Shown one piece after another: positions 5,138-47,686 of a stretch of 64,000 nucleotides of DNA. The notes below the pieces were generated by a model that was not told where the DNA came from, ran no database searches, and saw nothing but the letters and a program-made list of their open reading frames with translations. The stretch is from an uncultured delta proteobacterium. Lineage in GTDB: Bacteria; Desulfobacterota; Desulfomonilia; UBA1062. Position numbers and translations under genes: made by a program. Each line of letters begins with the position of its first letter. Position 1 is the first letter of the stretch. The DNA lies in contig CAWAUM010000012.1 of assembly GCA_963785235.1 (NCBI GenBank), positions 1 to 64,000 on the forward strand. The letters run 5' to 3'.

Positions 5138-5410
5138 AAAAATAATATCCACTTTCAACAAAGCAGTTATCTTTGTCTTGAAATAGAAAAGATTACTTTC
5201 TTTTAGTAGTTACAGCACACATCCCTGTCAATGCAATCATCGAGATTTATCTCGACGCTTTGATATTGTTCCGTGGATTAACCGATAGAAATGACCTCCT
5301 GTATAAGGATGACTACAATTATAGGGAATGGATTTTGATTAGAACGCACAATGTTCCAGCAGAACCAGAGATCTCTTTGCTTTCATCATGCTTTCGAAGA
5401 GCTCACGAAT

Positions 5411-5518
5411 TGATGATCTTGGGTTGAAACATATGAAATCTCCCGACATACTAGACCGTCACAACTGGGGCATGTACTCTATGGTTTTGCATGCCCCTAT
5501 TTTTCGATGATTATAGAA
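5411..5518 (-). repeat. Copy 2 of the ~107-bp degenerate dispersed repeat
   Basis: Alignment with 101-207 and 8967-9073. Minus strand reads SIIIEK*G...CDGLV...FHMFQPKII across a frameshift. Confidence 0.6.
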
Positions 5519-7633: not shown

Positions 7634-7680
7634 GTCTAACAATGATGATATACTGGAATAGTGCAGTATAATAAATGGCC
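7634..7680 (+). other. Degenerate attI-like integron head site (GTT missing)
   Basis: GTCTAAC followed by 36 nt that are 29/36 identical to the site at 47507-47542 (minus strand). GGCC follows where GTTGGCC would be expected. Confidence 0.55.
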
Positions 7681-7699
7681 GAAAAGAACAAAACAATTT

Positions 7700-8848
7700 A
7701 TGATTTGCCACATCCGCATACAAGCATTCGACTGGAATCTCATAGCTGTTGCCTGCGCAATGTTTGCGGTCACCATCGTGACCTGGGTGACGTTTGCAGC
7801 GGCGGCTGAACTGGAAATTCGCATAGATAATCCACCGATGAATGGAACAGTGATTGCGCTACTGTTCAACTCTGCCAGCACGTTTGTCGACCTCCGCGAT
7901 CCGGTAAACGTTGTCACCCTTCCGTCCGGTGGCAGCATGCCTGGACGCATTCCTGACCTACCCAGTGGCGAGTATGCACTGGTAGTTTACCAGGACGAGA
8001 ACAGCAACGGACTCCTGGATAAGAATTTCATTGGTATCCCACGTGAACCTCTCGGCTTCTCAAATAGCTACTGGCCACAAGGTCCTCCTGCCTTCACCCG
8101 CGCGGTGTTCCGGCTCGACGAAGGTGAAACGAAAACAATCGATATCAAACTGCAATCGGTCTTTGGGAAGTTGGGTCTGCTGGGTGTGGGTGTTGGTGTC
8201 ATCTTGCAGACTAGCCCATACCGTGATTCCAAACACTTAATTGTTCAACCCATTCCTGCGATCAGTTACATCGGCGACTGGGTTCAGATTCTCGGTCCTA
8301 CAGCCCAGTGCGGCATCATGAACTGGAATGATGTCAGACTCGCAGCGACTGCAAGTTATCGCCTTGGAGCCTACCGCGAAAGTGACAGTCCCTACCTGCA
8401 GGGTATGGGAGATCGCGATGACACTCTGATGGGAGGCCTGGCATTGCAGGTTCAATTACCCGCGGGTTTCGAACTTTCTGCCGGTTATGAGCATGACCTA
8501 CTCGACCGCATCGGTGGCGGCAATGGACGCATAGGTCTGGGAAAGGCCTTTCAGCAAGGTCAGCTGACGGTTTCTCCGCAACTGGCGCTAAACTGGCTTA
8601 CAGCTGAACTGGCCGACTACGAATATGGAGTGCCCGCAGACCGAGTCCGCGAGGGTCGACCAGCCTATCATCCCAGCGATTCAGTGAATCTCGAAATAGG
8701 GGTTACTCTATTCCGAGAACTTTATGACAATTGGCGAATTATCCTTACTGGGAGTGTCATATTCCTGCCCTCGGAACTCACCACCAGCCCGATTGTGGAC
8801 CAGGCGCACATGTTTAATGGTTTTGTTGCAGTCACCCGGCTGTTCTGA
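7700..8848 (+). CDS. DUF2141 + MipA/OmpV (MltA-interacting) outer-membrane fusion protein
   Basis: N-domain YALVVYQDENSNGLLDKNFIGIPREPLGFSN (DUF2141). C-domain with SPY, L.GMGDR, YEYGV and SPIVD motifs and terminal Phe (MipA barrel). Start codon uncertain (7661 or 7700). Confidence 0.8.
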   Translation: MICHIRIQAFDWNLIAVACAMFAVTIVTWVTFAAAAELEIRIDNPPMNGTVIALLFNSASTFVDLRDPVNVVTLPSGGSMPGRIPDLPSGEYALVVYQDENSNGLLDKNFIGIPREPLGFSNSYWPQGPPAFTRAVFRLDEGETKTIDIKLQSVFGKLGLLGVGVGVILQTSPYRDSKHLIVQPIPAISYIGDWVQILGPTAQCGIMNWNDVRLAATASYRLGAYRESDSPYLQGMGDRDDTLMGGLALQVQLPAGFELSAGYEHDLLDRIGGGNGRIGLGKAFQQGQLTVSPQLALNWLTAELADYEYGVPADRVREGRPAYHPSDSVNLEIGVTLFRELYDNWRIILTGSVIFLPSELTTSPIVDQAHMFNGFVAVTRLF

Positions 8849-8880
8849 CGACGATATGCTGAGAAATGGAAGAAGTAAGA

Positions 8881-8917
8881 GGCCAACAAGCTCCTCCACA
8901 TGCACACGAAGTTATCC
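8881..8917 (+). other. Truncated attC-like remnant after the MipA gene
   Basis: GGCCAAC-AAGCTCCTCCAC start. GGCCAAC is complementary to the reconstructed GTTGGCC at ~7677. Confidence 0.35.
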
Positions 8918-8966
8918 CATATGAATATCACTTCGATTTCGTCTCGATTTTGAAATCACTTGAAAC

Positions 8967-9073
8967 TGAAGATCTGGTGGTGAAACATACGAAGTCTCTC
9001 TCTTCAAACCAAACCATCACAACATGTTGTAATCATCACTTTCTTATACCCCTCTTTTTCGATGATTATGGAA
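8967..9073 (-). repeat. Copy 3 of the ~107-bp degenerate repeat (best-preserved REC remnant)
   Basis: Minus strand, extended a few codons upstream: SVLFRMFHSIIIEKEGYKKVMITTCCDGLV*RERLRMFHHQIF, CheY-like. Confidence 0.6.
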
Positions 9074-9131
9074 TGAAACATACGGAATAAGACACTTCAT
9101 ATCAGATCGTGGGCAATGGCACCAAAGCTTC

Positions 9132-9187
9132 AGGTAACTTGGGAATCACCGGTGGCTGAAAGCCGTCCGGTGATTCCATGCTTCAAT
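9132..9187 (-). other. Degenerate attC site downstream of the YeeE/YedE pair
   Basis: AAC-ttgggaatcaccggtggctgaaagccgtccggtgattccatg-CTT. Core GGCTGAAAGCCGTCCG is identical to the attC at 43550-43606, with one core triplet mutated. Confidence 0.6.
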
Positions 9188-9200
9188 CATCTCGTTAATG

Positions 9201-9731
9201 TTATAAGCCCTTTTTCTCAAACCAGAAGAACAAGGAAATCGTTCCGGCCCAGAAGAAAGGAATTATGACCCATGGTGAGACTCCCAGGACTTCCGGCAAC
9301 CCTATCTTGCCGAAGTCTTTCCACGCGAGAACCGTCGATTTGAAGAAGGGAAAGAGCTCCGCGTAGAGGGCGGCCCCTGCTACCATTCCCGCAACGGCGA
9401 AAAAGGCATGCCAGCGCCCTTCACCCAGAGCGCCGATCGACGTGCCCGGACAGAAACCCATCACTGCCCATCCAGCTCCGAACAGGGCCCCTCCCAGAAG
9501 CACGGCGCCGAGGTTCATCGGTTTGTGGCTTAAGGTGATAATCCCTGCATCCGTGAGCAGAGCTATCCCGACCATGCCGACCAATATGGCGGAAAGCATG
9601 AACTTGAATATCGTCATGTCCTTCAGCAACATGGCGCCGACCTGTTTCTCAAATCGCAGAACGCGACCCTTCTGCAGCAGGAAGCCGAACAATACCCCCG
9701 TAATGAGACCGAGCATCTGATCTATACTCAT
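9201..9731 (-). CDS. YeeE/YedE thiosulfate/sulfur transporter, second subunit
   Basis: MSIDQMLGLITGVLFGFLLQKGRV...GWAVMGFCPGT. ATGA overlap with the upstream gene. The track ORF 9201..10340 is a frameshift chimera. Confidence 0.85.
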   Translation of the reverse strand: MSIDQMLGLITGVLFGFLLQKGRVLRFEKQVGAMLLKDMTIFKFMLSAILVGMVGIALLTDAGIITLSHKPMNLGAVLLGGALFGAGWAVMGFCPGTSIGALGEGRWHAFFAVAGMVAGAALYAELFPFFKSTVLAWKDFGKIGLPEVLGVSPWVIIPFFWAGTISLFFWFEKKGL

Positions 9732-10271
9732 GACGGCCTCCTTCCATAAACAAGGGCGGCAACGAGAACGCCGACACTGAAGAACATCGCGAGGGCGACA
9801 AAGGAACTGACCGAGAGCTGCATCATGCCGCTCAATCCGTGTCCGCTGGGACAGCCGTCGGCCATTCGTGCACCCATCATGGCGACGATGCCTCCCAGGA
9901 ACGCCCCCACTGCCCGTTTCCCGATGGATGGGCCGAAACGCTTCTCCCATGTCGGAGGAACACTCTCCAGTTTGAAGCTTCTGTCCGTTGCGGAAGAGAT
10001 CAGCGCCCCCAGGAAGATGCCCGAGAACGAGCATGAACTGCCAATCGACGCGAACCTTCTCCTTTATGAAGTACTCGTTTGCTGCTACTCGATCCGGAGC
10101 AACGGTCCGTTCAAGAAGGCCGGCAGCTCGCACGAAGGTAGTCGATGCGCCCAGATAGTTGGATTTCCCCATCCACTCAGTGGTTGCATAAACTGATGCA
10201 ATGGCCAACAATCCCAACAAGGCTCCTGCGAGGTAAGGACTCCATCCGCCATCCTGTGTTTTCCATTTCAT
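9728..10271 (-). CDS. YeeE/YedE transporter, first subunit (frameshift near 10020)
   Basis: MKWKTQDGGWSPYLAGALLG...DWQFMLVLG, then in another frame GARMADGCPSGHGLSG. RBS GGAGG. Confidence 0.8.
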
Positions 10272-10296
10272 CGAGATTTCCTCCTTTGTTATTGGA

Positions 10297-10353
10297 ATCG
10301 AACGACATGATGAGCCGCGACTGCAAGGATTCGGCTCCATTAAATAGTTATGC
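10297..10353 (-). other. attC site between psiE-like and yeeE cassettes
   Basis: ATCGAAC-43 nt-GTTATGC with stem ATGAGCCG/CGGCTC(C)AT carrying an extrahelical base. Same inner length as the attC at 43550-43606. Confidence 0.65.
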
Positions 10354-10413
10354 CGTTTCTATTCGGTTAGAGCCATTCAGAAATGCTCTTATCATTATTC
10401 ATGATAGTTGTGT

Positions 10414-10833
10414 TCACTCTCCCCTGTTGTGAGAGTGGGCTCTTTTCATCAGATAATAGCCCGCAGTCAGCGCAACAACAATAGAGGCAATTCCGACTAG
10501 GCTCAGGCTGTCCACCTCTTTGAGATCTAAAATGATCACCTTGCGTGCAATCGCAATGATTGCCACCGAGAGAACAACCTCGTAATGGGGTTGATCTTGG
10601 GTTATGTAGGTTTTCATTATTGTTTCAAGCAGTTCGATTCCTATCACGACCAACATAAAGAGTCCGAAAATCTCAAGCAGCTGCTCAACACTGAGAAGAA
10701 AATACGGTGGGTTTACTGTATCTTTTATGATAAGCCAGCCAAGGTCGATTGTGGCAAGTAGCAGAACAATTGCCATCATGACCATAAGGGCCAGAATCAT
10801 TACCTTTTCGCACATCTTCAGAACAGTGATCAT
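10414..10833 (-). CDS. Phosphate-starvation-inducible PsiE family membrane protein
   Basis: LLEIFGLFMLVVIGIELLET...VAIIAIARKVIILD motif, 4 TM segments. Confidence 0.85.
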   Translation of the reverse strand: MITVLKMCEKVMILALMVMMAIVLLLATIDLGWLIIKDTVNPPYFLLSVEQLLEIFGLFMLVVIGIELLETIMKTYITQDQPHYEVVLSVAIIAIARKVIILDLKEVDSLSLVGIASIVVALTAGYYLMKRAHSHNRGE

Positions 10834-10901
10834 ACTATTATTGCTCCCCTTGTAAAATGATGGTTGCTACGGTATCGCAATTTATCCTATTCACCATATT
10901 A

Positions 10902-10948
10902 GGCATAATTACTATGCCGACTCAGGGCGGTATATCAGAATATGTAAT
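10902..10948 (-). other. Degenerate attI-like head site (GTT missing)
   Basis: Plus strand GGCAT-AATTACTATGCCG...CGGTATATC versus GGCATAAC-AATTACTATACTG...CAGCATATC at 47499. GGCAT matches the GTTATGCC at 10347. Confidence 0.5.
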
Positions 10949-11409
10949 GACTCAGACAGATATGTCGTTCTTATCAACATGGATTAGATGAATTGCCTCC
11001 CCATTCTCATTGAACGTGTTCAGCAATTTCTTGATGTGGAATCAAAGGTGTGTAATTACTTAATTTCAATACTATATCATGAGCTTTATATCAAATCTAT
11101 ATCAGAGTGAATAGTACTTCGATAACTCATTAGTTTAACCTCCACTCTTTCAACCAGCGATTGTGTTTACAAATCTACAAGTTGGTCAAAGTGAAGGATC
11201 TTGCAATAAACATGAATGGTTCCATAATGCTCCCAAAATCGATGATCTACAAATATTACCTACACAAACAGATACTTAAATTTGGAGTGGACCTGCATCC
11301 GGCAATGAAATCATCATCTACTTCATACAATTAATCAATTTATATCGTTCAGCTTGAAGTAATATTGACTATTAGTAAGATGTTGAGGTATTTTGATAAC
11401 CAAGAATAA

Positions 11410-11467
11410 GGGTGTAGTGACCTGATGGCAGGTCGCCGCAGGACAAAAGGATGGTCGGGCCGCCATC
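11410..11467 (+). ncRNA. nhaA-I motif (Li+-I riboswitch candidate)
   Basis: GGGUG-stem(UGUAGUGACCUG/CAGGUCGCCGCA)-GG-linker-GGUCGGGCCGCC, matching my recollection of the nhaA-I consensus. In the 5' UTR of 11548..11886. Confidence 0.7.
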
Positions 11468-11547
11468 TAGAGATGCGACAGGATTTGTAAACTGTCGCCC
11501 AACCCAATCGATTTATTATGTCGTTGGGATGATCTCTGGAGGCACTT

Positions 11548-11886
11548 ATGGATAAAGAACCGCAACAGAATACCCCTCAACCTGAGAAATCAGGCTGTCT
11601 CTCAATCATCGTACGTCTAACTTGGATGGCTTTCGGTAACATGGCATTGATCATCACAGCCTTTTCAATTGTCCAGCAGAAGGCGGGTATTGTGCTTGAC
11701 GTCATATTCTGGGCTGTGGTGACTGGACTTATACTTATTCGGTACATAGATATCAAAGTTTTCCAGGGGAATACCGCTGATAATGAACCAGCAACACTTA
11801 AAGATTGGCGTCAATATTCGATTTTGCTCATTGTAATTTCAGCATTTGTTTGGTTTGTTGCTCACGTAACAGTCCGTTTACTGTAA
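11548..11886 (+). CDS. Small hypothetical membrane protein (3 TM)
   Basis: RBS GGAGG, hydrophobic segments, 112 aa. Confidence 0.75.
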   Translation: MDKEPQQNTPQPEKSGCLSIIVRLTWMAFGNMALIITAFSIVQQKAGIVLDVIFWAVVTGLILIRYIDIKVFQGNTADNEPATLKDWRQYSILLIVISAFVWFVAHVTVRLL

Positions 11887-14234: not shown

Positions 14235-14302
14235 AAAAGCCGCCATCCGATTTAACGGATGGCGGCCCGACCATCTAAATCCTCCGGTATTAAACCGGAC
14301 CC
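14235..14302 (-). ncRNA. Second nhaA-I motif (Li+-I riboswitch candidate) with overlapping intrinsic terminator
   Basis: Minus strand GGGUCCGGUUUAAUACCGGAGGAUUUAGAUGGUCGGGCCGCC, then terminator GCCGCCAUCCG-UUAAAU-CGGAUGGCGGC-UUUU. Shares GATGGTCGGGCCGCCATC with 11450-11467. Confidence 0.7.
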
Positions 14303-22524: not shown

Positions 22525-22610
22525 TCCGTTAAGAACCTCAATCTTGCAGCCTTGAAGGACCGGGTAAATGAACATCCCGCAAAGGCTGCAAGATTGAGGT
22601 TCTTAATGGA
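22525..22610. repeat. Long palindromic intergenic element, copy A
   Basis: ~29-bp arms TCCGTTAAGAACCTCAATCTTGCAGCCTT / AAGGCTGCAAGATTGAGGTTCTTAATGGA. Homologous to 29012-29093. Confidence 0.85.
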
Positions 22611-42879: not shown

Positions 42880-43287
42880 TCATTTTACCTTTTTATGAAT
42901 AATCTCTGAAAATAATCTTGGACTTAGGATTGGTATTTTTTTATATTTTTCAAGAATGAGCAAGTCTTTATCACCTGTTACAATGTAATCTGCTTTGGAC
43001 GCAACCGCTAGCCCAAGTATTTTTATGTCATCCGCATCACGGCAAACATCTTGTGGCAGGGAAACTGGACTGAACAGAGAGGAGTGTTCAAGAAGGAACT
43101 CCTTGATAGCGTGAATCATTGTTGCAGGAAGTTTTATTTTACGTTGGAGATTTCTTGTAACTTCATTCAGCAAATCATCGCAAAGGATTAACTCATGTTC
43201 GCTTAGGCAAAGTTCAAAGATGGATTCGCATAGTCCACGAGAAGCGAATGCAGCAACGATAACATTGGCATCAAGAACAATCTTCAT
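42880..43287 (-). CDS. PIN-domain toxin (VapC-like)
   Basis: IVLDANV, CRD.DD, ADYIVTGDKDLL. Confidence 0.9.
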   Translation of the reverse strand: MKIVLDANVIVAAFASRGLCESIFELCLSEHELILCDDLLNEVTRNLQRKIKLPATMIHAIKEFLLEHSSLFSPVSLPQDVCRDADDIKILGLAVASKADYIVTGDKDLLILEKYKKIPILSPRLFSEIIHKKVK

Positions 43288-43499
43288 GAAATTGCTTTGA
43301 AGACGTCCTCATCAGTTAAAAATCCTTGGGCCTCGGCAAATGGTAGTACCTTCTTCCGCAAAGAACGAAATTTCTCAACAGCTACATAGCGACGAATGGA
43401 TTCTCTCACTATATCACTCACGGGTTTGCTCTGTTCTTCGCTGAGCTTCTGTAAATCATCCCTTAAATCTTCTGGTAATCTAATCGTTAATGTATTCAT
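43284..43499 (-). CDS. Ribbon-helix-helix (CopG) antitoxin
   Basis: MNTLTIRLPEDL...L..LS......SDIVRESIRRY. ATGA overlap with the toxin. TTGATT-16-TACAAT ends 8 nt before ATG (probably leaderless). Confidence 0.85.
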   Translation of the reverse strand: MNTLTIRLPEDLRDDLQKLSEEQSKPVSDIVRESIRRYVAVEKFRSLRKKVLPFAEAQGFLTDEDVFKAIS

Positions 43500-43549
43500 G
43501 GTAAGACATTGTAGCACTCTAATTTTGAAAATCAATAGCTACTTATAGC

Positions 43550-43606
43550 ATCCAACGTGCGGATCAGCGGCGGCTGAAAGCCGTCCGCTGGATTTGCTGG
43601 TTCGCT
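43550..43606 (-). other. attC site
   Basis: ATCCAAC-GTGCGGATCAGCGGCGGCTGAAAGCCGTCCGCTGGATTTGCTG-GTTCGCT. Confidence 0.9.
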
Positions 43607-43864
43607 TTAGCGATAGACATCTTTTCGATGACCTACTTTGACAACCCAGACAGTAAGTTCATTATCTTGGATAGAATATACAATGCGATAAAGTCCTTGA
43701 CGTATACGATACCTTTCTTGGCCTGTTAACTTTTCACTACCTGACGGGCGAGGATTTTCAGCGAGTTTCTTAATGCGATCAAGGATTCTGTTAAGATCCT
43801 TTTTTGGTATTGTCTTGAAATCTTTCTCTACAGATCTTTTGAAAAAGATATTATATGCGGCCAT
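43607..43864 (-). CDS. RelE/ParE-family toxin
   Basis: LA.NPRP.G.EKL.G..RYRIRQG.YRIVY.I.D..L.V.VVKVGHRKDVYR. Confidence 0.92.
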   Translation of the reverse strand: MAAYNIFFKRSVEKDFKTIPKKDLNRILDRIKKLAENPRPSGSEKLTGQERYRIRQGLYRIVYSIQDNELTVWVVKVGHRKDVYR

Positions 43865-44099
43865 CTTTTTTCAATCTCTTGACCATTTCATCATAGCTGA
43901 TCAGAGGTTCGGATACTCTATTCTCAAACGCTTCAAGATCTTCAGCGTCTTCTGCAAGGGATTCTCTGACGGCTTCATTAACCAGATCTGATACAGACCG
44001 GGATGTTTCGACAGCCTTTAATCGCAGTGCCTTATGAATATCTGGATCAAGGTATATAGTTGACCTTTTAGCTTGCATCGTCATAGCGTCACCTCCCAT
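43851..44099 (-). CDS. CopG/RHH antitoxin
   Basis: KRSTIYLDPDIHKALRLKA....SVSDLVNEAVRESLAED. Overlaps the relE start. Confidence 0.88.
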   Translation of the reverse strand: MGGDAMTMQAKRSTIYLDPDIHKALRLKAVETSRSVSDLVNEAVRESLAEDAEDLEAFENRVSEPLISYDEMVKRLKKDGRI

Positions 44100-44108
44100 T
44101 GGTGCTAT

Positions 44109-44140
44109 AACATTATAACGTCATAATGTTGATTTTTCAA
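44109..44140 (-). promoter_or_regulatory. Cassette-internal sigma70 promoter with overlapping operator palindrome
   Basis: TTGAAA-17 bp-TATAAT (44140-44112). Inverted repeat AACATTAT-N6-ATAATGTT overlaps it. Confidence 0.75.
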
Positions 44141-44153
44141 GAGTGATAATAGA

Positions 44154-44279
44154 GGCGAACGTTGCGGATCAGCGGACACAAACATAGCGGGGCACCAAGC
44201 CGGAAATTACCAACAGCCGTGAAGCGGAGCGGGGACAGAGGCAAAATCCAGCGCGGTTTGCTGGATTTGCTTGTTAGCC
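44154..44279 (-). other. Long attC site
   Basis: GGCGAAC-GTTGCGGATCAGC...GCTGGATTTGCTT-GTTAGCC. The hicB stop codon lies inside the core site. Confidence 0.8.
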
Positions 44280-44489
44280 TGTGATGGCAATGTATTCTGC
44301 ACTGGCGTGCGATTTTGGAATGGGTAGGTGATCTTCTTTTAACCCTTGTATATGTAATTCGATTGCATCATGGATGTTTTTTGCAGCTTGGTCCTTTGTT
44401 TTTCCCGTTGCTATACAACCAGGAAGATCAGGGGAATATGCAGAATAGTTTCCATTGGCTTTTTCAATCACGATTAAGAACCTGTGCAT
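44274..44489 (-). CDS. hicB: HicB-family antitoxin
   Basis: YSAY.PDLPGC.ATG.T......NI..AI..HI.GL......P. Confidence 0.9.
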   Translation of the reverse strand: MHRFLIVIEKANGNYSAYSPDLPGCIATGKTKDQAAKNIHDAIELHIQGLKEDHLPIPKSHASAEYIAITG

Positions 44490-44502
44490 GGAGATACCCT
44501 CC

Positions 44503-44703
44503 TTATTGCTTCCCGGATTTCTTTATCCCGGCTTGTTTAAATACGCTGTTTAAAGTTCCTGGGGCCAGATCATCGCCGGGATGTCCAGCAATTGTTACAC
44601 GCCCTTTCTTTTCAGGGTGCTTATACTGTCGATGACTCCCTTTCTGATACACTTGGTACCAGTCATCTTCTTCGATTGATTTTATTACATCTCTGATCTT
44701 CAT
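44503..44703 (-). CDS. hicA: HicA-family toxin
   Basis: KGSHRQYKHP.KKGRVTI.GHPG.DL..GTL.S. Confidence 0.92.
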   Translation of the reverse strand: MKIRDVIKSIEEDDWYQVYQKGSHRQYKHPEKKGRVTIAGHPGDDLAPGTLNSVFKQAGIKKSGKQ

Positions 44704-44758
44704 ATCATTATATTTAAACTATCCCATACTTCTATCCAGATCAAGTTATTACAAGGAA

Positions 44759-44817
44759 AGCTAACACCGGGCATCAGCCGCGCCCGTAGCGAGTCGGCCT
44801 GGATGCCCTTGTTCGGC
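44759..44817 (-). other. attC site
   Basis: AGCTAAC-ACCGGGCATCAGCCG...CGGCCTGGATGCCCTT-GTTCGGC. Confidence 0.9.
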
Positions 44818-44831
44818 GTCATTACATTAAC

Positions 44832-45835
44832 TTAGATTACCAATGCTTCATATTCAATTGGTATAGAAAAACGTTTTCTTAGTCGACGGAGGTATTCTTT
44901 ACTTTCTTCGTCGATCTGACTTTCGCCTACAACTATAATTCGATTTGGCTCCTGAGCTCCTGGCCAGAATCCATACTCTAAGAGTTGTCCAATAGCCTCA
45001 CGTAGACAGGCCCTCGGAGTCAGGGCCGTCTTGATCTCGTAGAACCAATAATGTTTTTTAATCTTAACTACTAAATCAATCAGCGTTCCCACTCCACTTG
45101 GTTGCTCTACTCTGACATTATCTCTGCCATATTTAGATGCCAGCTTCTTATAGAGCGCCTCCTGAAGGATATTATGGCGAAGATCAAGGTCGAGTTCTCT
45201 CTCTGCATAGGTTACTTTTGATTTAGTCGCCTTCTTGGCATATCCTGATTTGAAATTAAATCCTTGCTTGGGTAGCGGTAATGGTGCAGTAGCCCCTCCA
45301 CTTTCAACGTACTGATACAAAGGTATAAGCCGATTAAAATCATTTAAAATCTCCTCATAATCGATTCTCTTTGAGGATTGACGGTTTCCTAGAAAAACAA
45401 ATACGTTCTTCTCAATGAGCGTTGATGGAATCAAACCAGGTGGGTAATCTGAACTTCGCTCAGGATTATAATGCCACATACGCATATCATAAATTCACTG
45501 GCATTCATTTCCATATAATCATTGAAGAGCTTGACCTTCGGAACCAAGACATCAATCGACTGTAATGTCTGGCTGAGCTCAAATGAGAAAGCGACACCGT
45601 ATCTTATATCTTCATTCTCATCGCCATTTGCATATCCGATATTAAACTGAAGCTCTGTTCTCCCCCATGATGGAAGGCATAGTCATCAAATGTTGATATG
45701 TACACTGAAGATCTTGTCACCCGGTCGGCGCTTCAACTTCTTTAATTTGGTACGAATGTCCTGAATTGTGCCAATTGGATGGGCCTGAGCCAGTTTATTT
45801 AATTTGTTTGCTATAATAGGAATGTCAAGGGGCAT
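44832..45835 (-). CDS. Hypothetical protein with C-terminal PD-(D/E)XK nuclease-like domain (frameshifted cassette)
   Basis: Starts MPLDIPIIANKLN at 45835 and continues through indels into 44832..45485 with IDLVV.....WFYEIK...REAIGQLLEY. Confidence 0.7.
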
Positions 45836-45880
45836 AGTTTCTTCCTCTTACTAATTGTGTTGATAATGCTGATCCATATC

Positions 45881-45932
45881 GCCGAACGTGCCGGTCAGCC
45901 GCGGCCGAAGGCCGTCGGCTGGAGTGTTAGGC
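45881..45932 (-). other. attC site (one arm shortened)
   Basis: GCCGAAC-GTGCCGGTCAGCCGCGGCCGAAGGCCGTCGGCTGGAGT-GTTAGGC. Confidence 0.75.
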
Positions 45933-45936
45933 TCTT

Positions 45937-46859
45937 TCATGATTTGGGGCCTTTGCCCAAGACGGCTTCAAGCCTCACTTGAAGCCTATTAGCCAACTCT
46001 TTCGGTGACTCCCAGTCAATACAGTTAAATTGCCTTATATCGAAGTGCAGATCTGCCATTTCGCTTCTTTGACAAGTCCAAAACACGGGTAACCCAATAC
46101 CTAGGGCATAGCCAGCTTCAAAATACACACCACCTCGTGGCCGGTAAAATCTGCTACAACGAATTTCGAGGAATTAATCTGCCTAATGATTTCGTCGTCT
46201 ATGCGATTGATGTGTTCTACCTGATCCATTCGCACTGGCTCGTACCCTGCCTCCATAATCCCCACTTGAAATCCATTGGTATATATTTCGTTCAGTTCTG
46301 GCTTAAAAGACATTGCTACAAAGCCGTTAGCAGACGCTGAGCTTTTGCCCCTTAACTCATCAAGCTTGATGTATCCCCCTGGTAAGATTGCGCATTCCCC
46401 ACCCATTGCTGTAAATTCTGCGAATCCCTGATCACGGAGTATTCCAAGAAGATAACCTACATCATCATTATTGGAAGAGTAGGTTGCTGCTAAAAACCTT
46501 GGCTCATTGATATTGAAATTGTCGCCAAGCCTCTTTAGGCCTTTTTCTGCTTCCACTAGCAATAATTTAGCCCGTTCCATTATGGGGGGAATAGGTGTGG
46601 CGATTATCGTTTTTAAGCTATCGGATGTGATAAAAGGAACAGAGCCAAGAGTATTCTGATTTCGAACCCATCCTGAAAGTATTGACCGGCGTTCTTTTCC
46701 CAGGCCATGACTCATCATTGAGAGAGCTGTTCCAGATACTTTGAACTCTCCACAACGAGGACAATTCTGATGAATACCGTCGAACCCCCCGCTGGGGATT
46801 GTTGTAGCAAGCTCGACAGAGCAGACTTCACACCGATCCTTGTCTTCATCTAGTTTCAT
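45937..46859 (-). CDS. Zn-ribbon/wHTH + nucleoside 2-deoxyribosyltransferase-like protein (frameshift near 46135)
   Basis: CEVC..CPRCG, FVAMSF, RIDDEII..I..S.FVVADFT, then YFEAGYALG.G.PV and HFDIRQ. Confidence 0.8.
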
Positions 46860-46872
46860 GTGAATCTCCGTT

Positions 46873-46932
46873 GCCTAACGCCACGCATCAGCCGCGCGCG
46901 TAAGCGCGTCGGCCTGGATGCGCTTGTTATGC
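46873..46932 (-). other. attC site
   Basis: GCCTAAC-GCCACGCATCAGCCGCGCGCGTAAGCGCGTCGGCCTGGATGCGCTT-GTTATGC. Confidence 0.9.
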
Positions 46933-47485
46933 CTTTTTGCCCCGGATACCATCAATATTTGCATCAAACCAATTGCCCCAGTTTTCAAGCAAGACTTGTG
47001 AAGCGATTGATCCTTTTACATCACCTGTCTCGCTACTCTTTATGAAAAGCTCAACACCTCCAATAAATTCATTTTTAAAATGATCGCCGAACCCTTGATA
47101 ATGCCTATTCATAGAATCGATATCTGCTTTTTTTGCTTCTTCTAGCGCCTTTTTGTAATAAGAAAGAATCTCATCCATATCCGGTTGAGATATAAATTGC
47201 GAACCACCCTTATTTATAATTGCTGTAGCCTTATTTGTGTAATCTATTGCCAAAGAAACATGAGATGAAGAGTTATTAAGAAGGAGATATGAAAACAAAA
47301 TATGGCCAGGCTATAGCCTTTGCTGTGGCGACGACTTCCCCAAAAGCAAACCATTTCATAAATCCATGGGTCTTTGCATAATCCCAATTGTAGTAAGGAG
47401 TAAATACAAAGAAGGTCACAATAAAATAAAGACCGAAAATGGTACTAATAAGGTTAGTAAAAAATTTTTCAAAGATTGCTTTCAT
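46927..47485 (-). CDS. Hypothetical membrane-anchored protein, first cassette (probably one gene with a frameshift near 47280)
   Basis: ORFs 47276..47485 (TM) and 46927..47298 overlap within a single cassette with one RBS (AGGAG). Confidence 0.6.
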
Positions 47486-47499
47486 TATTATCTCCTAAG

Positions 47500-47578
47500 G
47501 CATAACAATTACTATACTGCACTTTTGCAGCATATCCCCATTGTTATTCGTAGCACAATTGCAGTATATCCAGATATT
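47500..47578 (-). other. attI-like head site of the array
   Basis: Minus strand GAATAAC-aatggggatatgctgcaaaagtgcagtatagtaatt-GTTATGC. AT-rich, short inner palindrome, upstream imperfect direct repeat GATATACTGCAA. Unlike the GC-rich attCs. Confidence 0.65.
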
Positions 47579-47686
47579 GAGTGCAAGGCATTACGATGTT
47601 ATAAATATTTAAATAAACGATCGACAACTCTCATCCATTCCAATAATTTCCCAGATGAGACTGATTCAAGGATAAAAAGGCAGGTA

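Follow-up and report, generated by a model that had tools for sequence, protein, structure and literature searches.

The 64,000 nucleotides analysed here (the window) form the start of contig CAWAUM010000012.1 (C12) in assembly GCA_963785235.1 of an uncultured delta proteobacterium (G000), a 3.9 Mb assembly that is 93% complete. The window holds three copies (s5, s6 and s3) of a sequence module that stands at the head of gene cassette arrays and resembles the attachment site attI of integrons. Two of these heads, s5 and s6, lack the GTT triplet within which the integron integrase (IntI) makes its crossover, and it is these two flagged sites, together with the genes behind them, that are considered below. 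The features concerned, with positions counted from the first letter of the window and a slash marking the junction between head and following sequence, are as follows.

7637-7676, plus strand: head s5, a type A attI-like module of which only the right part is present (homologous to genome G002 from 7637 at 94% identity; junction seen in metagenome contigs of runs X3 and X4)
7700-8848, plus strand: gene for a DUF2141 and MipA outer-membrane-type protein (MipA 4.9e-37, DUF2141 3.2e-22)
9133-9187, minus strand: attC closing the second s6 cassette, R' GTTACC, R'' AAG for AAC (25.7 bits, E 1.6e-3, model R1)
9201-10271, minus strand: second s6 cassette, a YeeE/YedE-type sulfur transporter gene pair (Sulf_transp 5.7e-22, DUF6691)
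10298-10353, minus strand: attC of the PsiE cassette, R'' GCATAAC, R' GTTCGA (28.5 bits, E 2.2e-4, model R1)
10414-10833, minus strand: first cassette gene of s6, PsiE family membrane protein (PsiE 1.3e-29)
10902-11040, minus strand: head s6, a type B attI-like module with its core at 10907-10936 and the junction GTAATT/ATGCC (comparison of genome and congeners, metagenome contigs)
10988-11110, plus strand: stub of a divergent recombinase-like open reading frame (MNCLPILI...) of about 40 codons (counterpart beside head s7)
47501-47612, minus strand: reference head s3, a complete type A module with the junction GTAATT/GTTATGCC; the array behind it extends over 7 attC to 41290

The three heads share a 30-base core, found at 7647-7676 on the plus strand (s5) and at 10907-10936 (s6) and 47507-47536 (s3) on the minus strand. 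A preliminary description of this DNA had read s3 as AAC-N36-GTTATGC, and the window letters agree, the minus strand of 47500-47549 running GAATAAC-N36-GTTATGCC with the triplet directly after the core at 47506-47504. The same description held that the other two copies lack exactly this triplet. At s6 the letters bear it out: the minus strand of 10936-10902 reads ...CATAGTAATT-ATGCC, against ...TATAGTAATT-GTT-ATGCC at s3 (over 10902-10915, ATAGTAATT-ATGCC against ATAGTAATT-GTT-ATGCC). At s5 the copy at 7641-7676 does agree with the s3 N36 in 29 of the 36 positions, and GGCC comes directly after it, but the 'GTTGGCC' said to be expected there was a construct of that description, never observed at the locus. 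With the junction letters GTAATT/ATGCC at s6 and ATAAAT/GGCC at s5, neither flagged copy has a GTTRRRY core at its end; both have lost the G of the triplet, and the junctions consist of ATT or AAT followed by RRRY. The complementary cores to which these heads had been matched lie at 8881-8887 (GGCCAAC) and 10347-10354 (GTTATGCC).

The GTT-less junctions are not an artefact of this assembly, judging by contigs assembled from four public metagenome runs of four studies (X1 to X4, of which X1 may be the source sample). The s6 junction at 10902-10912 is bridged without a gap by X1 record 8 and X2 record 16, and the s5 junction at 7676/7677 by X3 records 17 and 18 and X4 record 25. An inserted GTT was absent from either junction in these contigs, which are assembled sequences and not raw reads, and their only listed indels relative to the window lie at 9171, 10020 and 10023. 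Nor is chance an explanation for the motif: with up to three mismatches allowed, the window contains exactly 3 matches to the 30-base pattern, whereas 100 shuffles average 0. As the pattern was drawn from the sites themselves, this test is circular, and the real test is therefore that of the genome and its relatives.

Across the genome, the head motif is present at 9 sites (at least 9 copies). Type A comprises s1 (C1), s2 (C7), s3 in the window and s4 (C13), in which a module of about 110 bases stops sharply at GTAATT and GTT follows; s5 is a truncated type A, and s6, s7 (C1) and s8 (C12:116493-116522) represent type B. Head s8 is divergent from the only integron integrase gene (intI) of the genome, located at C12:115.4-116.4 kb (TIGR02249, 464 bits, cut-off 265); behind the head come first GTTATGCGG and then the main cassette array. 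Relatives are alike in this respect. At locus L067, where IntI is 68% identical, the start of intI and a type A module are some 60 bases apart, and the module reads ...GGTATAGTTATT/GTTATGCG at its end. L069, L070 and L078 have a different palindrome but the same kind of hairpin with a TAGTAAT-like tail between intI and GTTRRRY; such a tail is found on the array strand in 8 of 80 IntI loci. The motif is thus attI-like, given the copy beside the sole intI and the module or tail beside intI in relatives. Adjacency to intI holds for the head family (s8; L067, L069, L070, L078) and not for s5 or s6 themselves, and a whole-genome TIGR02249 search found no intI remnants beside s1 to s5, its other matches falling far below the cut-off. 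Matches to the type A module occur in 7 of 14 congeners, at 1 to 14 copies each, none of them beside intI.

The family is linked to cassettes as well. A covariance model of attC (R1) was built from four clear attC sites in the window and run on the whole genome, and a second model (R2) was run on 37 loci from relatives. Together they place attC arrays in the genome after s1, s2, s3, s4, s6 and s8, always on the strand of the head, and R2 gives s7 one weak match, after a MazEF-like pair. Among the relatives, attC sites were found in 15 of the 37 loci, and every one of them lies downstream of its head on the same strand. Only one of the two flagged sites has same-strand attC cassettes, namely s6 with two attC. 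Heads away from intI do carry attC arrays, in keeping with the earlier claim of several integrase-less docking sites, and the profile scan outlined in the preliminary description has yielded both the nine sites here and a large family in congeners with linkage to intI and attC.

In an intact head of about 110 bases, a direct repeat occurs twice (GGATATRCTGCAA..GTGC), accompanied by an inverted partner (GCAGTATA) and by a tail that is conserved (TAGTAATT). The module terminates at the crossover G/TT, which is where the attC-bearing cassettes begin, and what lies beyond this point turns over: among 57 pairs of heads with a common upstream flank, not one shares downstream sequence (0/57). Long pairs with strong flanks that look orthologous and yet differ downstream include s3/L032, L038/L039, L043/L052, L057/L063, L037/L056, s6/L152 and s1/L046. 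A conserved left side, a one-base junction and unrelated right sides are, in comparisons of this kind, the classical signature of an integration site. The hallmark of attC, a bottom-strand hairpin with R''/R' and L''/L' boxes, is not displayed by the heads, which are unmatched by models R1 and R2 and mostly fold no better than shuffles, and no Rfam family matches any head at the gathering threshold.

For the state of the triplet, 47 heads from this genome and its relatives were collected and aligned. GTT stands at +0 or +1 after the module in 28 of them and is absent from 19, which supplies the comparison of intact with GTT-less copies that had been proposed as a check. The loss noted at two heads is therefore real but nothing special to these sites, and it has come about by several routes, point substitutions included. 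The largest class of short heads (about 10) runs from AATT straight into a purine-initial tetramer of the kind usual at cassette starts (ATGC, GGGC, AGCC, ATGT and others); s5 and its G002 counterpart stand apart, two heads are ambiguous, and both flagged sites belong to missing-triplet classes. Since the closest relatives of s6, namely L152 (96%), L153 and L154, all have GTT, with L152 reading ...AATAATT/GTTAGAA, the GTT-less state is evidently the derived one.

The s6 locus looks like a relic platform, with a recombinase-like stub, a G-less attI and two cassettes whose attC are decaying. About 100 nucleotides upstream of s6 are conserved and common to s7 and to GTT-bearing copies in G011 and G004. 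The counterpart of the stub beside s7 has 159 amino acids, with weak Phage_int_SAM matches (E 0.001, below the cut-off) and 30% identity to the IntI N-terminus (E 0.059). The cassette behind s6 ends, as had been stated, at the complementary core at 10347, where the attC is supported by R1 (28.5 bits, E 2e-4) and begins with GGCATAAC, its R'' box at 10347-10354. This attC is a weak hairpin (-5.4 kcal/mol, z -0.18, versus -18.1 for the attC at 46874-46932), and it is here, at 10300-10309, that contigs of all four metagenome runs break into other sequence. For both s6 attC the R2 scores are circular, as the sites are in the training alignment of that model, and R1, built on other sites, was relied upon instead.

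No PsiE cassette turned up when 15 genomes of the genus were searched at the DNA level. An X4 contig carries it up to 10908 and then departs into other sequence, its minus strand reading ...CCTTACG/TTATGCCTAA; this canonical G/TTATGCC start likewise marks the GTT-less state of s6 as derived. For the second cassette, the sulfur transporter gene alone has DNA matches of 78-86% in G008, G009 and G012. Its gene pair reads as one frame in this assembly because of an extra base near 10020-10023, where the window has CCC; contigs of all four runs leave out one base, at 10023, a difference that fuses or breaks the first YeeE-like gene. With two attC and the nearest intI about 105 kb away on the same contig, the s6 array fits the definition of an attC cluster without an integron integrase (CALIN).

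At s5 the left two thirds of the module are missing, and they are present in the congener copy L049. What is left contains the palindrome TATACTG-N8-CAGTATA at 7649-7670 and TATAAT at 7667-7672, with GGCC directly after, and no stub of a recombinase-like reading frame lies beside it. The letters GGCCAAC reported at 8881 are present, but no attC is detectable there: with filters off, the best plus-strand match after the s5 gene, at 8881-8916, reaches only 6.5 bits (E 2.1), and the core was rejected as an attC on these values. The gene behind s5 therefore cannot be demonstrated as a cassette. Among the heads compared, s5 and L049 (G002) are the only ones at which two species have a first gene in common, at 93% identity over 900 nucleotides.

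Taken together, we read both flagged sites as decayed array heads of the integron attI type that belong to a multi-copy family, and would put the probability of this at roughly 0.7. The single IntI encoded at C12:115.4-116.4 kb may act in trans on the scattered heads. On this reading, s6 would be the remnant of a whole platform (recombinase gene stub, attI, PsiE cassette and sulfur-transporter cassette) and s5 a truncated head fused to a DUF2141-MipA gene that is now without an attC. The TATAGT/TATAAT tail could plausibly act as a cassette promoter.

The consequence of losing the G can be estimated by analogy with class 1 integrons. At class 1 sites, a change of G1 in one partner lowers recombination 10^3 to 10^4-fold, and with a triplet that is non-complementary within an attC it falls to 6e-6, from 2.2e-3 (Frumerie et al., 2010; PMC2811028). 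If a first-base mismatch lowers recombination here too, the first gene behind a G-less head would hardly be excised or displaced, and so would stay beside the head. By the same analogy, the ATT-type head of s6 would be expected to react hardly at all with GTT attC sites, the second s6 attC, with AAG in its R'' box, should also be impaired, and the genes next to the flagged heads have probably been fixed in place by the loss of the triplet.

Several points weigh against this reading or against parts of it. The class 1 data may not transfer to the IntI of this genome, and the binding and recombination of the heads by IntI, as well as their transcription, are putative throughout the family. G003, a complete genome with 14 matches and no integron integrase, keeps GTT in 6 of 11 heads, so that presence of the triplet is not simply tied to a resident integrase. 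Five of the GTT-less heads have substitutions (GTA twice, GTG, ATT, GAG), and neutral decay therefore fits as well as any 'locking' advantage. The left palindrome arm is absent from about 10 heads of the aligned set, which means that the palindrome is no universal requirement, and a consensus scan of reference head s3 found no sigma-70-type promoter. As to permanent genes, the extra base near 10020-10023 may be a real frameshift or a homopolymer assembly error. The gene behind s5 may never have been a cassette, and the gene shared by s5 and L049, the one direct hint of fixation, comes from a single orthologous pair.

The three bases could have been lost by replication slippage across TTGTT or by cutting one triplet off register. 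Deletion of TTG, TGT or GTT from AATTGTTAT leaves an identical product, as does IntI cleavage at the AAT beside AAC on the bottom strand; because slippage and off-register cutting yield the same product, the manner of loss is not separable by sequence. The same heads may thus be explained with a different emphasis, in which their GTT-less junctions are dead-end products of an IntI that cuts one triplet off register, forming an irreversible ratchet. In detail, the bottom strand of the head has AAC and AAT in tandem, and cleavage after the AA of AAT would join ...GTAA to TT-RRRY, giving GTAATT+RRRY. Such products would accumulate irreversibly, since they no longer match GTT partners.

This explanation draws on the fact that about 10 of the 47 heads, of both module types and in four genomes, pass from AATT into a purine-initial RRRY-like tetramer, which is many for an exact three-base loss. 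Arrays of attC are also as frequent behind short heads (L032, L033, L036, L038, L050) as behind intact ones, and the PsiE cassette starts TTATGCC elsewhere, so that the s6 junction is readable as GTAA/TTATGCC with its cassette end intact. However, the product is the very one expected of a three-base slippage deletion within TTGTT, the s5 junction AAAT/GGCC needs a further change, and the known secondary sites of IntI1 are GWT, not ATT (10.1101/2022.09.11.507474). Moreover, AT follows the junction in 6 of 10 short heads and in 6 of 28 intact heads (a small, non-independent sample), an excess that is predicted by slippage through TT.T microhomology and not by off-register cutting, and that slightly favours slippage with extra microhomology. 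We accordingly regard off-register cutting as the source of these junctions as possible, though on the unlikely side.

A bolder form of the same idea, which we consider rather doubtful, is a distributed integron: about a dozen heads scattered around the chromosome, each feeding a small array, would be served by a single integrase or, at present, by none, with occasional off-register cleavage at AAT as the irreversible ratchet that makes the first cassette a fixed gene coupled to the head. If true, the combination of distributed integron and ratchet would explain the origin of many CALINs and offer a route to the domestication of cassettes.

The attI-type interpretation must also be set against a regulatory one. 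The inner stems pointed out earlier (TATGCCG with CGGTATA, versus TATACTG with CAGCATA) are as described, and their compensatory-looking changes are real: over the aligned heads the palindrome arms co-vary, with 83% paired and 15 double-change cells against 4.8 +/- 1.9 in shuffles (0/500 reach 15). This co-variation implies some dyad or hairpin constraint in part of the head family, which would be expected of a symmetric operator too, and the module could then be a promoter-operator for a transcription factor, such as an SOS or other stress repressor, and not itself a recombination site. The core palindrome does overlap the -10-like TATAGT/TATAAT, and LexA boxes are known in intI promoters (PMC3108266). 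Even so, conservation ends exactly at G/TT with downstream content differing in 57/57 flank-sharing pairs, and the palindrome occurs genome-wide only at heads and in two chance matches within coding regions, so there is no regulon. Heads without a left arm (about 10) and the want of a sigma-70 consensus in the s3 scan speak against it likewise, and no LexA DNA-binding domain was found in the 93% complete genome. An operator in place of a recombination site is improbable on these grounds, and a LexA operator in particular was rejected as the principal explanation (no LexA_DNA_bind match, no regulon-like spread of the palindrome); a dual role of the module, as operator and recombination site, may apply. 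Finally, it is very improbable that the module is a miniature attC, the hairpin end of a promoter-bearing cassette without a reading frame that was inserted at many GWT sites and then seeded arrays, for although cassette insertion outside att sites is documented (10.1101/2022.09.11.507474) and s3 reads ATAACAAT...ATTGTTAT around an inner hairpin that folds above shuffles (-6.8 kcal/mol, z -2.9), the latter is the only one of five heads to do so (L043 z 0.03, s8 z 0.47, L067 z 0.39; intI-adjacent heads are among those at chance level), which led to its rejection as a family property, the attC models are unmatched, and the left boundary is unsharp, running into three or more different upstream repeat families.

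Beyond the two flagged sites, the genome holds two further degenerate heads, and the window a repeat that adjoins the s6 array.

G000 C5:159276-159305: degenerate head, apparently a type A module in which one 34-base repeat unit has collapsed, without TAGTAATT or GTT
G000 C1:456608-456693: degenerate head
8950-9130 of the window, plus strand: dispersed repeat of about 130 nucleotides that has nothing to do with cassettes, present as a full copy and half of another, the latter abutting the last s6 attC

The reading frame behind the C5 head is presumably Asp/Glu-racemase-like, a name read by eye from its translation. Of the repeat of about 130 bases the genome contains at least 15 copies, those in the window lying at 84-207, 5408-5518, 8950-9075 and, in part, 9077-9130. 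It ends in a GGCATG...CATGCC hairpin followed by a T run and could represent a terminator unit or a small RNA; one head subfamily has the 5' half of this repeat as its upstream flank. A separate, near-perfect palindromic repeat of 76 bases (TCAAAACCTCAATCTTGCAGCC...GGCTGCAAGATTGAGGTTTTGA) lies at 22530-22605 and in more than 60 places on all large contigs, and is not an attC. Matches to the nhaA-I riboswitch above the gathering score were obtained at 11410-11468 on the plus strand (49.7 bits), upstream of a small membrane-protein reading frame at 11548-11886, and at 14257-14302 on the minus strand (44.9 bits).

In three heads (L026, G002 C5; L029, G002 C21; L043, G004 C7) an IS91-family element (Y2_Tnp and Zn_Tnp_IS91 transposase) with its own tyrosine recombinase follows directly after the GTT, starting GTTGAACTAAGCC in two of the three; L026 is the intI-adjacent attI of G002. 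In the main integron, the first cassette encodes DUF1801, and the next two lie at G000 C12:117049-118730, the second (L012 5050-5916) encoding a metallo-beta-lactamase-fold protein and the third (L012 5955-6728) a protein of 258 residues with a transpeptidase/beta-lactamase domain, class D-like in size. Within the s3 array, at 42880-47485 on the minus strand, are small pairs of reading frames that we take, by eye, to resemble toxin-antitoxin cassettes (PIN-like with RHH, RelE-like, HicA/HicB-like). The two larger proteins of this array, of 252 and 217 residues and the only two searched, have no Pfam match.

Only a few classes of integron have a known attI, and there is debate over how cassette clusters without an integrase arise. 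Many of those in this lineage have a conserved attI-type head at their start; the head is multi-copy, and 19 of 47 heads are without the crossover triplet. Should the heads work in trans, the integron would be a dispersed system and not a single locus, and if loss of the first base blocks recombination, it would provide a simple route from mobile cassettes to resident genes. Searches with the head sequence could moreover pick out arrays that appear as orphan clusters in the output of attC-only tools.

The heads share several features with attI1, whose layout is a simple site with L and R boxes together with direct repeats, DR1 and DR2 (10.1101/2022.09.11.507474). In both, the site lies between intI and the first cassette, ends at the G/TT of a GTTRRRY core, has two direct repeats and an inverted element upstream, and is joined to different cassettes at the same base. 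However, the two have no sequence similarity, the heads possess the conserved TAGTAATT tail, and the inverted repeat of the heads lies 6-7 bases upstream of the crossover, whereas that of attI1 contains it. A single genome also holds 9 to 14 or more of the heads, most of which have no intI, and their binding by IntI is putative.

The arrays behind them resemble CALINs and single attC sites lacking an integron integrase (SALIN), which are clusters or sites with no integron integrase close by and, for the most part, no intI pseudogene either; attI itself is not recorded for most integrons in the same account (Cury, 2016; PMC4889954). Insertion at GWT sites has been proposed as an origin of such arrays, with cassettes outside the platform possibly domesticated (Loot et al. 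preprint; 10.1101/2022.09.11.507474), but the integrase-less arrays described here start at a conserved attI-type head and not at an arbitrary GWT site (attG). The excerpted texts of these two sources contain no description of attI-headed CALINs. In the literature covered more widely (these two, 10.64898/2026.03.17.712381 and 10.1101/2025.06.18.660453 among it, as excerpts without supplements), neither multi-copy attI heads on integrase-less arrays nor recurrent loss of the attI triplet is mentioned.

The decayed chromosomal integrons of Xanthomonas are similar in that an ancestral platform has been progressively inactivated, with CALINs at conserved positions; there, however, the decay is in intI, and the excerpted text describes no loss of the attI triplet or multi-copy heads (10.1101/2025.06.18.660453). 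The closest experimental parallel to the ATT-type heads is the finding that IntI1 needs an identical first triplet base in both partners, on which the suggested inertness of such heads is based (Frumerie et al., 2010; PMC2811028). Those were engineered mutants of a class 1 system, whereas the heads described here are natural and recurrent variants in a distant IntI lineage, the activity of which is putative.

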